NCBI RefSeq assembly: GCF_044324875.1
Contig: NZ_CP172185.1
Origin: Escherichia coli
GTDB lineage: Bacteria > Pseudomonadota > Gammaproteobacteria > Enterobacterales > Enterobacteriaceae
Length of the DNA stretch: 64,000 nucleotides
Reading direction: 5' to 3' (one strand)
Numbering within the stretch: position 1 is the stretch's first letter; each line of letters starts with the position of its first letter. The translations under genes were made by a program, and so were the position numbers. A model generated the notes under the pieces. The model was not told the origin of the DNA, searched no databases, and saw nothing but the letters and a program-made list of their open reading frames with translations. Of this stretch, positions 35,688 through 40,971 are shown one piece after another.

Positions 35688-35882
35688 ATGGCACTTCCTC
35701 AGCCCCCGGTTACGTTCATTTGTACCAGATGTAAGTGGCGTAAAACCATTGTCCATATGGGATGTACTACTGGATTTTCACATTGTCCTCAATGTGGCAG
35801 TAATTCGGTAAAACGGGAAAATGCTGGTGTTGTTACTTCATTATTTTCCTCCCTTTCATCCGTTTTCATGAAAAAATCCTGA
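35688..35882 (+). CDS. small zinc-ribbon protein (CxxC...CxxC)
   Basis: 64-aa ORF with CTRC and CPQC pairs, immediately upstream of the GTPase cluster. Confidence 0.4.
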   Translation: MALPQPPVTFICTRCKWRKTIVHMGCTTGFSHCPQCGSNSVKRENAGVVTSLFSSLSSVFMKKS

Positions 35883-35983
35883 CTGCTGTTATTTTTATAT
35901 TGCTGGTACTTTATTAAAATCCGCTAAGGTTTTGTATCAGAAATAATTCTCAGACAGTAATCGTCATTCCATTCCGGGGATTT

Positions 35984-36652
35984 ATGAATACGAAAGAACA
36001 ATTCAACCAGCTTTATGATGATATCAGTAATCAGATACGCCAGACTGTGAATGATATTTCGCAACTGAGTGTTGAGAATGAAAAAGGACAGATACATCTC
36101 AATAAAATACGGGAACAACTACAGGCATTACATGATAACTTCAATCATAAGCTGGATTACCTGAAGGAGCATGCCGAATGGGACAGGTTTACTGTCGCTT
36201 TTTTTGGCGAAACGAATGCTGGTAAAAGTACCATAATTGAGTCGTTGAGAATATTATTTGATGAAACAACCCGTCGTGAATTCCTGAATAATAATCAAAA
36301 AGATTTACAAAAGTCAGAACAGGAGTTAAGTAAAAACCTGGAACAGTTAAGCCATGATTTGGAATGCGTTTATGGTGATATTGTCGATAAATTCCGTGAC
36401 ATTAGTTTGTCTGTCATGCAGTTACGACAAATTGTTGCTGATGAGAGCGCATTACGTATAAAAATGGAAGAAGATGAAAAGAATGCCCGTCTCCTTACAG
36501 AACAGAATGAAAGTCAGGCCCGGCTGAATATTTTACAGCAACAGACGAATACCAAAGCACGTTTCAGATTATTTGTGACGGCAATTATCAGCATGATTGT
36601 GGGAGGATGTGGATTTCTGTTGCTGAATCAAGTATTCGGGAGCTTACAATGA
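35984..36652 (+). CDS. LeoC-like protein: coiled-coil protein with P-loop (GETNAGKST) and C-terminal hydrophobic helix
   Basis: 222-aa ORF; stop overlaps next start (ATGA). Confidence 0.6.
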   Translation: MNTKEQFNQLYDDISNQIRQTVNDISQLSVENEKGQIHLNKIREQLQALHDNFNHKLDYLKEHAEWDRFTVAFFGETNAGKSTIIESLRILFDETTRREFLNNNQKDLQKSEQELSKNLEQLSHDLECVYGDIVDKFRDISLSVMQLRQIVADESALRIKMEEDEKNARLLTEQNESQARLNILQQQTNTKARFRLFVTAIISMIVGGCGFLLLNQVFGSLQ

Positions 36653-38373
36653 GTAATATTCCATGTTCTGCAGATAATAATCCGGAAAAATATCCGGAAA
36701 CTGTCTGTCAGGAATATAATTGCACAGGCGGCGCGGATGATATCAGGTTCTTTTTTAAAAAAAGTCTGGAGCGTACTGTTAGTTCCGTTATCCGGACCGA
36801 AACATTAAGAAATACTGCAAAACGTGTGGATGGCCTGATCATCGGAACCGGTGAGGCTGATTTTACCAAAGACAACACACACTATAATTTACGCATTGAC
36901 GATAAAGATTTTCAGTTGATTGATGTTCCGGGTATTGAAGGTAATGAAACCTGCTACACACATCTTGTTAAAAAAGCCATTGCGCAGGCTCATCTGGTGG
37001 TTTACGTCAACGGTACCAATAAAAAGCCTGAAACAAGCACCGCAAAGAAGATCAAATCTTATCTGGAATATGGCACTCAGGTTTATCCGTTGATCAATGT
37101 ACGCGGTTATTCTGATGACTATGAATTTGAGGAAGATCGTGTCGCTCTCGAACAACAGGGTAGGGGCGGTGAGGCTTTATGCCAGACTGTTGGGGTGCTC
37201 GCTTCCGTATTAGGGGCGGATGTGTTGCTGAATGGGAACTGTGTACAGGGATTACTGGCATTTTCAGCGTTGGCTTATGACGACAATACACACAGAACAA
37301 CCATTCATCCGTTACGTGATCGAAATCTGGCGGTATATCAACGTGGTTTTTTTAATGTATTTCCTTCCCGTCAGGAAATGCTGACATTCAGCCAGATTGA
37401 TGCCGTCGCTCAGACAATTAAAAATAAGGTCGCAACGTTCCGTGAGGATATTATCGAAAGTAATAAATATAAAGTTCGTGAGACTCTGGATCAATACTTA
37501 CAGGTACTTGAAGAGCAATTAAACAGCCATCACTGCTTTTTACAAAAGACAATACCGGAATTTGAAAAATGCCGGACTGCGTTCAAAAATGCGACTGGTG
37601 AATTTGAACGCCGTATTGCGAACAGTCGTCGCAATCGCTGGAATAGCCTTTTTAATGACCTAGGGAATGCCTGTGATGGTATTGTCGAACATAATTTTGG
37701 TGACAGCAGTGCTATTTCCACACTGATACGTAATGAGTATGAAAAGCGCCGTAAAATGATGGAACAAATGATGCAGGAGGATACTGAAGAGAGTGTAAAG
37801 GTATTACAAGAGCAAACTCTTCAGGCGGTAAATCGTTTGCTGGAAGATATTCACAATGTGGAACTTCAACACCCCCTCAGTTTTGCTAACAGCCGCAGCA
37901 TCGAGTTTAGTGGAGAGATGGTACCTGGTTACGAGCTGGGGATGGCTGATTTCAGTTCAATGGTTTTAAAAATTGGCAGCTATGCAATGTCAGGCAGTGC
38001 AATTGGCAGCATCTTTCCCGTTATTGGTACGCTTGTTGGCTCTGCGGTTGGTGCGTTGCTTGGCATAATAATGACTATTGCGGGTATTTTTACCAGTAAA
38101 GCGTCAAAAATCCGCAAAGCACAAGGAAAAATACGCAACAAGCTGGAGGAAGTGCGGGATAAATCTCTCTGCAGCATACCTGATGAAACCCGCCTCCTGG
38201 TTGCAGCTATTGAAAAAGAACTTGAGTGTGGCCTGCTGCAAAAACTCAACGATATGCAGGTGGATCTGCAACAGCCTGTTGCCATATTCGAAACTCAAAT
38301 CAGTCGAATCACAACATTAAAGAAACAATTGGAGAAAATGCCTTATGGAACAATTCAAACAGTTCAGTATTGA
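36649..38373 (+). CDS. LeoB-like dynamin-family protein with non-canonical G1 and membrane paddle
   Basis: DVPG (G3) present, canonical GKS/T absent; long hydrophobic segment near residue 470. Confidence 0.6.
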   Translation: MSNIPCSADNNPEKYPETVCQEYNCTGGADDIRFFFKKSLERTVSSVIRTETLRNTAKRVDGLIIGTGEADFTKDNTHYNLRIDDKDFQLIDVPGIEGNETCYTHLVKKAIAQAHLVVYVNGTNKKPETSTAKKIKSYLEYGTQVYPLINVRGYSDDYEFEEDRVALEQQGRGGEALCQTVGVLASVLGADVLLNGNCVQGLLAFSALAYDDNTHRTTIHPLRDRNLAVYQRGFFNVFPSRQEMLTFSQIDAVAQTIKNKVATFREDIIESNKYKVRETLDQYLQVLEEQLNSHHCFLQKTIPEFEKCRTAFKNATGEFERRIANSRRNRWNSLFNDLGNACDGIVEHNFGDSSAISTLIRNEYEKRRKMMEQMMQEDTEESVKVLQEQTLQAVNRLLEDIHNVELQHPLSFANSRSIEFSGEMVPGYELGMADFSSMVLKIGSYAMSGSAIGSIFPVIGTLVGSAVGALLGIIMTIAGIFTSKASKIRKAQGKIRNKLEEVRDKSLCSIPDETRLLVAAIEKELECGLLQKLNDMQVDLQQPVAIFETQISRITTLKKQLEKMPYGTIQTVQY

Positions 38374-40078: not shown

Positions 40079-40190
40079 ATGCATAATGCAGTTCCGTACA
40101 TCCGAATTTGAATAACGAATACTCTTTCAGAACTATCTGGATTGAAAGGATGCCTTCTGCTAATCATCGGAAATATGGCTTACTTAAGAC

Positions 40191-40400
40191 ATGAGGGATA
40201 AATCAGTGAGATTATTGTTAAAGGGACTGACTGGAATGGTTATGGCCTGGTTGGTGATCTATTTTGGTATGAAATTATTTTTTCTCACAGATCAGATTCA
40301 TCCGGCATTAAGAACTCTTGTCATGCTGGGGATGTTATTTATGTTGATAATGATTCCCTGTGTAATATGTGGTTCTTTTTTACGAAAGAGGCAGAAATGA
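40191..40400 (+). CDS. small two-helix membrane protein
   Basis: 69-aa ORF with two hydrophobic segments and basic C-terminus. Confidence 0.4.
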   Translation: MRDKSVRLLLKGLTGMVMAWLVIYFGMKLFFLTDQIHPALRTLVMLGMLFMLIMIPCVICGSFLRKRQK

Positions 40401-40485
40401 TAATTCGTCCTGTAATAATGACGAATCAACAAGAAAAATTGATGCATAAGAATGATACATATACTTATCTGTATTAAAGGATGAT

Positions 40486-40971
40486 TTGATGAACATAAAA
40501 AATATTTTTCTGTTTCTTTTTTTTAGTTTATTAGCAGGTAATGCCTTTGCTGCTGCAACAGTGATGGGGTATTGTGAACTGAAGAATGGAAAAACGCTTT
40601 CTGTATGGGCTGGTGATAATGGAAGTTATAATTATACTTTATATGGCAAAAGTGGGACGACAGAGTTACAGCTAAAAGAAGGATTGTTTGGCGTCAGAGC
40701 TTTTCACTATTATCATTCCATACGTGATGGAGTGGGAGCGTTCAAGTACCTCCGGTTTAATAAAGGTGAATATGATTATGTTGTCATGTCGTATGAGGAT
40801 GGTCGTTCCCCCTATTTTGATGGTGTGATAGTATTCAGAAATGGAAACCGAATTGCTCGTCTCGAATGTGCCCATCCATTTACAGGAGCATTTTCTGTTG
40901 AAGAACTGGATGCAGGACATAATCAGGACAGTGAAGATATGGCTGAATATATTATGAGTAATTTTACCTGA
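40486..40971 (+). CDS. secreted hypothetical protein
   Basis: cleavable signal peptide MMNIKNIFLFLFFSLLAGNAFAAA; low GC. Confidence 0.5.
   Translation: MMNIKNIFLFLFFSLLAGNAFAAATVMGYCELKNGKTLSVWAGDNGSYNYTLYGKSGTTELQLKEGLFGVRAFHYYHSIRDGVGAFKYLRFNKGEYDYVVMSYEDGRSPYFDGVIVFRNGNRIARLECAHPFTGAFSVEELDAGHNQDSEDMAEYIMSNFT

Follow-up and report, generated by a model that had tools for sequence, protein, structure and literature searches.

This study concerns a co-directional block of six genes at positions 35688-40971 of a 64,000-nucleotide stretch of Escherichia coli DNA (contig NZ_CP172185.1 of assembly GCF_044324875.1; we refer to the whole stretch as the window), which carries an intact Eleos-type LeoC-LeoB-LeoA operon, encoding dynamin-like guanosine triphosphatases (GTPases), together with a small zinc-ribbon gene that we call ZnR. 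The core system is already known, and the operon is a divergent allele of the one found in enterotoxigenic E. coli (ETEC). What our analysis adds is one undescribed accessory gene, ZnR, which is well supported, and a wider neighbourhood of genes, whose association with the operon is suggestive. The genes of the block and their neighbours are listed here by coordinates and strand (PGAP, Prokaryotic Genome Annotation Pipeline; ORF, open reading frame).

34858..35601, + strand: tia-like outer-membrane beta-barrel gene (PGAP 'outer membrane protein'; Pfam OMP_b-brl)
35688..35882, + strand: ZnR, a 64-amino-acid CxxC-x17-CxxC zinc-ribbon protein (no PGAP annotation)
35984..36652, + strand: leoC, 222 amino acids, N-terminal part of a split dynamin-like GTPase (PADLOC LeoC)
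36649..38373, + strand: leoB, 574 amino acids, remainder of the split dynamin-like protein (PADLOC LeoB)
38345..40078, + strand: leoA, 577 amino acids, complete dynamin-like GTPase (PADLOC LeoA)
40191..40400, + strand: small two-helix membrane (transmembrane, TM) ORF, 69 amino acids, with two hydrophobic stretches
40489..40971, + strand: Sec160, a secreted 160-amino-acid protein with a signal peptide (PGAP 'hypothetical protein')
41106..41870, - strand: JukA-like gene of the YaaW family, with DUF3944 and a Cbp3-like chaperone domain (PADLOC JukA, Pfam)
43088..44281, - strand: P4-type tyrosine integrase of the island that bears the block (Pfam domains)

All six co-directional ORFs of the original prediction are present on the + strand across 35688-40971, in DNA that is indeed low in GC (0.36-0.46 over 35-42 kb, where much of the window has 0.50-0.58), and the integrase is as close as had been claimed, with 2.1 kb between it and the block's end and 3 kb between it and leoA. 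Two gene starts and the gene inventory had to be revised. The middle gene, which had been given as 588 amino acids from 36607, most likely starts at 36649 (574 amino acids), because the ATG there shares the sequence ATGA with the leoC stop codon and is the start chosen by PGAP and other gene callers; the start of the secreted gene is more likely 40489 (160 amino acids) than 40486 (161 amino acids); and the JukA-like gene on the opposite strand at 41106-41870 had been overlooked. Overlaps of 4 nucleotides between leoC and leoB, and of 29 nucleotides between leoB and leoA, join the three core genes on one strand. We consider the ORFs to be beyond chance on account of the PADLOC E-values, and because both small ORFs (ZnR and TM) are kept in frame in a divergent allele, with which they share only 54% and 74% DNA identity, respectively.

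The core proteins matched profile models throughout. LeoC was recognized by PADLOC at 4.4e-71 (profile positions 1-203 of 207) and LeoB at 1.3e-218 (positions 34-568 of 568), and on the fused LeoBC profile LeoC matched the N-terminal part and LeoB the C-terminal part. LeoA matched PADLOC PDLC03840 (5.3e-280, residues 1-575 of 577) and NCBIfam NF041922, the LeoA/HP0731 model (614.5 bits, cut-off 325), and aligned over its whole length with the crystallized ETEC LeoA, PDB 4AUR (phmmer, 1161 bits, residues 1-577 to 1-577). A search that might have returned no dynamin hit thus matched LeoC, LeoB and LeoA alike, and the predicted likeness to ETEC LeoA/LeoB/LeoC is borne out by PADLOC, NF041922, PDB 4AUR and synteny with ETEC strain H10407. 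Of the claim of three dynamin-like genes, the dynamin features stand, but the genes encode two dynamin-like proteins, one of them split (LeoC plus LeoB) and the other being LeoA. In LeoC the P-loop GETNAGKS stands at residue 75 and the C-terminus carries a membrane anchor (FRLFVTAIISMIVGGCGFLLL), and LeoB has DVPG (switch 2) at 92, NKKP at 124, a stalk and a hydrophobic paddle (GSAIGSIFPVIGTLVGSAVGALLGIIMTIAGIF), while LeoA carries G1 (GAFSDGKT, 60), G3 (DTPG, 108) and G4 (NKMD, 177), the canonical motifs that had been read in the last gene. The layout of LeoC and LeoB fits the published description, in which LeoC, with the P-loop and switch 1, terminates in a hydrophobic membrane anchor, and LeoB contributes the DxxG motif as well as a region that binds membrane and lies between the middle domain and the GTPase effector domain (PMC4159319); orf2/orf3/orf4 of the tia locus have the leoC/leoB/leoA arrangement (Michie et al. 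2014, PMC4159319). The name Eleos, which the original prediction had used, is published for the LeoA plus LeoBC anti-phage system (bioRxiv 10.1101/2022.12.12.520048). Its components are all found here, i.e. LeoA and a LeoB and LeoC that are split, in adjacent and co-directional genes. In 2022, Millman et al. are said to have dealt with an anti-phage system formerly called 'Dynamins' and now Eleos. RefSeq names LeoA a 'toxin secretory dynamin-like GTPase', and no published phage-protection test of either the window allele or the H10407 allele was found in the literature searched.

The classical counterpart of this operon is the LeoCBA locus of the tia pathogenicity island (PAI) in ETEC H10407, reportedly described by Fleckenstein in 2000. 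The arrangement tia-leoC-leoB-leoA was found in about 60 of 5426 complete E. coli genomes, H10407 included, with approximately 90% DNA identity to the 3' three-quarters of the window operon. Compared with H10407, the amino acid identity is 91.5% for LeoA, 81% for LeoB, 54% for LeoC and 77% for the Tia-like outer membrane protein. When the window allele, which is that of E. coli CM2, was compared with the classical alleles of H10407 and strain 447 by sliding comparison, a hypervariable cassette emerged at about 35540-36870, comprising ZnR, leoC and some 220 nucleotides of 5' leoB, with 42-66% nucleotide identity, against 80-84% in tia and 87-95% in the rest of leoB and leoA. The synonymous divergence (dS) exceeds 1.4 in ZnR and leoC, versus 0.25-0.45 in leoA and leoB, a pattern suggestive of either replaced alleles or diversifying selection at the system's 'head' end. 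In strain 447, a human blood isolate (locus L002, 11376-13110), the classical leoA is frameshifted, with leoC, leoB, ZnR and the TM ORF intact; the leo system is decaying in at least some carriers. In other bacteria, leoCBA is not accompanied by a conserved tia or orf5 (Michie et al. 2014, PMC4159319), and the tia-like gene is neighbouring context, outside the dynamin system.

ZnR has no PGAP annotation in CM2, strain 447 or H10407, and an in-frame orthologue lies intact between tia and leoC in both H10407 and strain 447 (MVYPRPPMTFICTKCNWKKTITHINCIRSFSSCPRCGC...). The window and classical alleles share 54% nucleotide and 41-45% amino acid identity, and the ratio of nonsynonymous to synonymous substitution rates (dN/dS) between them is 0.27 in the ZnR frame, versus 0.87-1.06 in other frames of the same DNA, by which measure ZnR is a real gene under purifying selection. 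The exact H10407/447-type protein has been called on at least 1000 public contigs, always as 'hypothetical'; the window allele gave no match in a word-indexed protein search, and its exact sequence is absent from the public protein collection searched. The family consensus, MPIRPxPFTFxCxxCGWxKTVAPxSDALxPGEW..CPxCGSxxLxxRxA followed by a short helical tail, spans Pseudomonas, Stutzerimonas, Achromobacter, Paraburkholderia, Shewanella, Sphingorhabdus, Luteibacter and Rodentibacter; its CxxC(G)W...CPxC core is invariant, an MPxxPxP N-terminus is kept in most members, and the tail is short and helical or hydrophobic. No Pfam, NCBIfam, PADLOC or PHROG model matched the family at threshold. Assignment to the known FmdB, Zn_ribbon_8 or HypA zinc ribbons was rejected, as the matches lie below the family thresholds: 18.3 bits against TIGR02605 (FmdB; cut-off 31.3), an independent E-value of 0.0023 for Pfam Zn_ribbon_8, and at least 3e-3 for HypA in all 20 family members. 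The AlphaFold2 model of ZnR (mean confidence, pLDDT, 66) places three short strands at the knuckles. No relevant literature tying a zinc ribbon to Eleos or dynamin defence was found in a search outside which many subscription papers lay.

The association of ZnR with dynamin genes was assessed from both directions. Among 637 LeoB relatives matched in a representative library of 1.84 billion proteins, 39 were aligned, and scanning one genome per species gave 80 loci from other species, which brings the full Leo set to 83 loci. All sampled loci have the order leoC-leoB-leoA or leoBC-leoA, except a few contigs that end before leoA and one locus in which leoA comes first (L075). Starting from the two E. 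coli ZnR alleles alone, an iterated profile search over every six-frame segment converged on 27 matches in 25 of the 83 loci (~30%), all of them within 2.2 kb of leo genes, where the bases within 2.5 kb make up 47% of the flanks (binomial P=1.4e-9); 15 of the 27 lie within 600 nucleotides (P=1e-7), and 22 share the strand of the leo genes. Split and fused Leo systems carry ZnR in 14 of 40 and 11 of 43 cases, respectively. A similarity-free scan found small CxxC..CxxC ORFs to be 4.4-fold denser within 1 kb of leo clusters than farther out, and added two plausible analogues from outside the family, in Serratia silvae (L005) and a member of the Bacteroidales (L046). The S. silvae locus, which has no ZnR-family gene, carries at 5878-6084 a 68-amino-acid ORF with an N-terminal TM helix and a CxxC-x19-CxxC motif, 150 nucleotides upstream of leoC, and this may be an analogous, non-homologous zinc-ribbon partner.

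In the reverse test, the ZnR profile was run against 5.8 billion proteins and returned no more than 38 clusters, each labelled 'hypothetical' and each free of Pfam domains. Six independent homologues were sampled on long contigs, and five of them belong to operons with Dynamin_N/MMR_HSR1 genes, whose architectures include BrxR-84aa-ZnR-95aa-DUF726-LeoBC-LeoA, a WYL-linked LeoA plus a DUF726-LeoBC fusion, an Azoarcus operon with three dynamins and two four-gene split systems. A further homologue was found 3' of a dynamin-RdcB-patatin operon (L096/L098, described below). In three Pseudomonas-type loci (L084, L085, L086), ZnR stands in a recurring cassette of a divergent BrxR/WYL regulator, conserved 84- and 95-amino-acid ORFs and a DUF726 protein; the L086 version of that protein is a fusion with LeoBC. 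Taken together, these comparisons provide good support for ZnR as an overlooked, widespread but optional accessory of Leo-type and other bacterial dynamin operons, for which neither a model nor a literature record was found. The suspicion of an undescribed component is therefore upheld for ZnR but not as a local variant, since ZnR is a whole family, widespread and present in H10407 too; nor do the zinc-ribbon and membrane ORFs set the locus apart from a standard LeoABC locus, both being intact, though unannotated, in H10407. Conservation across related loci, proposed at the outset as a check on the small genes, holds for ZnR (25 of 83 loci) and fails for the TM ORF and Sec160, which are confined to E. 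coli.

We consider it probable that the block is an Eleos-type operon with ZnR as a real, conserved and optional accessory, which binds or regulates the LeoC/LeoB head. LeoC (P-loop half and TM anchor) and LeoB (switch 2, stalk and paddle) would together rebuild one membrane-tethered dynamin-like protein, with LeoA as its soluble partner, and GTP-dependent hetero-oligomerization of the two at the inner membrane would remodel or stabilize that membrane. Such activity could limit phage-induced membrane damage or lysis, by analogy with Bacillus subtilis DynA, which requires membrane binding to protect against phage and delays lysis (PMC12998192). The same activity could promote vesicle-linked toxin release in ETEC, where disruption of leoAB lowers the secretion of periplasmic and outer-membrane markers, Tat-GFP and OmpA (PMC4159319). 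ZnR, which is tiny and by its sequence cytoplasmic, may bind or regulate the LeoC/LeoB GTPase head as a trigger sensor, an adaptor or a regulator of assembly, a placement suggested by its co-variation with leoC and 5' leoB in the hypervariable cassette. We infer each of these steps, as well as any role of the small proteins, by analogy with the work of Michie et al. and the DynA literature.

Several observations weigh against this reading. ZnR is absent from 58 of the 83 Leo loci, among them those of the nearest relatives (E. coli 97.3, Escherichia sp. ESNIH1 and two Serratia), and so cannot be an obligatory subunit. Its placement varies, being upstream, downstream or up to 2.2 kb off, and on the opposite strand in 5 of the 27 matches. 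The loci used to build the profile, by iteration, are also those on which it was scored, and the Bacteroidota matches are low (33-45 bits) and may be generic zinc ribbons. The sixth homologue of the reverse test (L084) has no recognizable dynamin within 6 kb; it keeps the BrxR-84aa-ZnR-95aa-DUF726 cassette, with an ADP-ribosylglycohydrolase gene before ZnR. Shine-Dalgarno signals at ZnR are weak (7 of 27 against a background of 17%, a count that used automatically chosen starts, which are off for some loci), and the window copy is without a clear one; promoter-like sites (32, with 25.8 expected) show no enrichment, and there is no conspicuous one upstream of ZnR. With regard to the core, LeoA purified alone had no clear nucleotide activity (PMC4159319), which weighs on the core mechanism too, and LeoB and LeoC were insoluble and could not be purified (Michie et al., PMC4159319).

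The TM ORF downstream of leoA has an alternative start, a GTG at 40206 preceded by a GAGGG Shine-Dalgarno sequence, which gives a form of 64 amino acids that is annotated in some GenBank E. coli genomes. Its counterpart after leoA in H10407 and strain 447 is intact and unannotated, with 57-59% amino acid identity, and the frame stays open and hydrophobic across 26% nucleotide divergence; dN/dS is 0.36, yet one shifted frame gives 0.46. In Fig. S1 of Michie et al. (PMC4159319), the spacer between leoA and orf5 is taken as non-coding and marked 'terminator?'. No TM homologue was found by tblastn in the 80 loci from other species, and the idea of a TM peptide as a general Leo companion was rejected, given that hydrophobic ORFs follow leoA in 6 of 70 cases, versus 7 of 70 in the opposite-strand control. 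The TM ORF is probably a real but lineage-restricted companion of leoA, confined to E. coli as far as these comparisons reach.

Sec160 has a Sec-type signal peptide (...AGNAFA/AAT) and an all-beta AlphaFold2 model of low confidence (pLDDT 57); it gave no Pfam, PADLOC, NCBIfam or PHROG match, and its relatives are found in E. coli only. It was rejected as a general Leo companion, with no match in the 80 other-species loci and absence from the classical leo locus, from which the JukA-like gene is also absent. The JukA-like gene, which is convergent with Sec160 and preceded by a 1.2-kb AT-rich gap free of ORFs, matches PADLOC JukA (7.1e-69), Pfam PF13099 (DUF3944, 1.6e-16) and PF03981 (Ubiq_cyt_C_chap, 9.6e-16), and the prophage protein family phrog_13238 (3e-120). 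In the Juk system, the sensor JukA (YaaW) pairs with variable effectors, JukB being an effector (bioRxiv 10.1101/2022.09.17.508391). PADLOC found no JukB among the neighbouring ORFs tested, so that the effector which Juk calls for in the operon is missing. Homologues of the JukA-like gene directly precede LeoBC in L056 (60% identity) and L068, and the gene stands beside Leo genes in 3 of 83 loci, window included, L096 being a further case with a different dynamin operon.

The two rare E. coli loci L096 and L098 have the order JukA-like, 757-amino-acid dynamin, YjcZ/RdcB, patatin, Sec160 homologue and 73-amino-acid ORF. The last of these is a good member of the ZnR family (54.8 bits, 41-44% identical to the window copy), the Sec160 homologue lies directly 3' of the dynamin-RdcB-patatin operon, and in L096 the JukA-like and Sec160 proteins share 59% and 70% amino acid identity with those of the window. 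By this gene content, two different dynamin 'engines' have homologues of ZnR, Sec160 and the JukA-like gene around them. In L096 (1-7321) and L098, a different dynamin system seems to fill the slot of leoCBA in the tia island. Two findings speak against a functional linkage: tia-like and phosphoethanolamine (PEtN)-transferase fragments lie at the end of the L096 contig and mark the same island backbone, and the common dynamin-RdcB-patatin operons, which are found in about half of E. coli genomes, are without ZnR, Sec160 and the JukA-like gene. Those common operons are reported to be induced in lysogens (PMC12922286). A link of Sec160 and the JukA-like gene to dynamin cassettes is thus suggestive only.

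The island as a whole has the order dolP-like, yebF-like, tia-like, ZnR, leoCBA, TM, Sec160, JukA-like and integrase, the last with the domains Arm-DNA-bind_3 (PF13356), Phage_int_M (PF22022) and Phage_integrase (PF00589). Positions 34800-42200 are 100% identical to E. coli CM2 (chicken, China; NZ_CP158308.1), and the AT-rich, ORF-free spacer at 42200-43080 has one single-base indel versus the CM2 record (2661 versus 2660 bases, 99.9%). Many draft E. coli genomes hold the CM2-type block with little change, and the predicted island or hotspot setting is confirmed by the presence of the P4-type-integrase island, with its integrase at the edge, in at least three chromosomal contexts, i.e. dsbD/cutA, DUF554/speC and, as in CM2, an integrative and conjugative element (ICE) of SPI-7 type. 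The integrase is taken to be the island's own because the block through the integrase recurs together in these different contexts. No tRNA gene was found in the 64-kb window, and the selC-linked site of the tia-PAI was rejected for this island, which occupies other sites and retains a tia-like gene (77%). Just past the integrase (43088-64000; L001 15759-19401) lies an SPI-7/PAPI-1-type element with ParA, two small ORFs, a DnaB-PI helicase and ParB, and in CM2 the leo island stands in tandem with the ICE. Upstream of the tia-like gene, at 33555-34542, are a dolP-like gene for a BON-domain lipoprotein (NF008247, 275 bits) and a yebF-like gene, in which PGAP places an internal stop, yet the 117-amino-acid ORF is open here; sodC lies farther left in the CM2 record. 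ORFs of 548 and 332 amino acids on the - strand at 30892-33310 are, as we take them from sequence alone, an IS21-type transposase and its ATP-binding helper.

Other explanations of the locus have to be weighed against an operon with an optional accessory at its head. Among them we give most room, while still thinking it rather doubtful, to a main role in virulence and secretion, i.e. LeoA-dependent vesicle toxin release, with ZnR and the TM protein serving envelope or vesicle biogenesis. The Tia-like outer membrane protein gene immediately upstream, as in the tia-PAI, the envelope paralogues on the island (dolP-like, yebF-like and sodC), the lowered Tat-GFP and OmpA secretion upon leoAB disruption (PMC4159319) and the RefSeq name of LeoA all fit such a role, whereas the lack of conservation of tia and orf5 with leoCBA in other bacteria (PMC4159319), the avian origin of CM2, and the soil and marine Leo loci with BrxR/WYL regulators, integrases and defence neighbours, which fit defence, do not. 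The two roles are not mutually exclusive. That the window holds a plain LeoABC/Eleos locus, with ZnR, the TM peptide, Sec160 and the JukA-like gene as unrelated cargo or spurious ORFs, seems to us improbable. PGAP leaves both ZnR and the TM ORF uncalled in CM2, strain 447 and H10407, the leoA-orf5 spacer is non-coding in the figure of Michie et al. cited above, the TM ORF follows no general pattern, and Sec160 and the JukA-like gene are missing from both the classical locus and the common dynamin-RdcB-patatin operons; moreover, with L096 on a tia/PEtN-transferase backbone, co-travel may reflect a common scaffold. For ZnR, however, this explanation is contradicted by the two-way, cross-genus linkage to dynamin genes and by purifying selection, and for the TM ORF by a frame that has remained open and hydrophobic despite its divergence; for Sec160 and the JukA-like gene it may hold.

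For ZnR itself, the main alternative to an adaptor role is a transcriptional one, as a partner of WYL/BrxR. More broadly, we think it unlikely that ZnR is a small expression regulator (an RNA- or DNA-binding ribbon, or a WYL/BrxR partner) rather than a protein partner of the dynamins: although in Pseudomonas it lies between the divergent BrxR/WYL regulator and the dynamin genes or beside a WYL gene, its placement is variable and the gene optional, and it has weak similarity to the regulatory zinc ribbons HypA and FmdB, it carries neither a helix-turn-helix nor any other domain for nucleic-acid binding, a WYL regulator is missing from the E. coli loci, and ZnR varies together with LeoC and the N-terminus of LeoB. 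L084, with its cassette and DUF726 but without a dynamin, favours neither the regulator nor the partner model. We give little credence to a Juk-type composite, in which the JukA-like protein would be the infection sensor, the dynamin operon a swappable effector, and ZnR and Sec160 shared auxiliaries. The flanking of two dynamin cassettes by JukA-like, Sec160 and ZnR homologues (59%, 70% and 41-44% amino acid identity) and the position of JukA-like genes directly 5' of LeoBC in L056 and L068 agree with it, but only those 3 of 83 loci, window included, have the gene beside Leo genes; here it is convergent and not co-transcribed, with no JukB found by PADLOC, the common dynamin-RdcB-patatin operons lack all three genes, and descent from a common scaffold, the tia-PAI backbone of L096, explains the trio equally well. 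Also unlikely, in our judgement, is the view that in a large share of dynamin-based immune systems ZnR acts as a functional fourth component, a sensor or gatekeeper of the LeoC/LeoB-LeoA assembly, and that on E. coli islands it belongs to an accessory set (ZnR, a JukA-like sensor and Sec160) shared around swapped dynamin engines, LeoCBA or dynamin-RdcB-patatin. If it were true, Eleos would be a modular multi-component system, with its specificity determinant in the hypervariable ZnR-LeoC cassette.

An Eleos-type operon with ZnR as an optional accessory that binds or regulates the LeoC/LeoB head is hence the reading that we prefer. ZnR would then be a concrete missing piece for the Eleos/LeoABC mechanism, LeoA alone being biochemically inert in published work, and the cassette of ZnR, leoC and 5' leoB points to a possible seat of specificity. 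PADLOC, DefenseFinder and PGAP overlook a recurrent small gene of this system. Should the small genes prove irrelevant, the locus would be one more allele of a known operon.

Among known systems, Juk shares with the window a JukA-like protein of DUF3944 plus Cbp3-like architecture, and differs in that the window has no JukB and that its JukA-like gene is convergent with leo. The E. coli dynamin-RdcB(YjcZ)-patatin operons on CP4-like islands (PMC12922286) are likewise island-borne dynamin cassettes, built around a different engine, i.e. a single 757-amino-acid dynamin with an RdcB-family protein and a phospholipase. DynA of B. subtilis, the best-studied case of dynamin phage protection (PMC12998192), has the same paired-dynamin architecture at the membrane, but it is a single fused two-headed polypeptide of a Gram-positive host, with no split GTPase domain or reported zinc-ribbon partner, and its likeness to the Leo proteins is one of architecture. 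The leo locus of ETEC H10407 has the same order (tia-like, ZnR, leoC, leoB, leoA, TM ORF, with ZnR and the TM ORF unannotated), the same dynamin-like protein split into LeoC and LeoB, the same leoB/leoA overlap and an integrase-bearing island as carrier. It differs from the window in the hypervariable 5' cassette, where LeoC is only 54% and ZnR 45% identical, in its site at selC (tRNA-Sec), window-type islands occupying other chromosomal sites, in the phosphoethanolamine transferase gene (orf5) downstream, in place of which the window has Sec160 and the JukA-like gene, and in its host, that of the window allele being an avian E. coli. With Eleos, the window shares both required components, in adjacent and co-directional genes, LeoBC being split in the manner covered by separate PADLOC models; to the two genes of Eleos as described, or three when split, the window and approximately 30% of the sampled loci add a linked ZnR gene.

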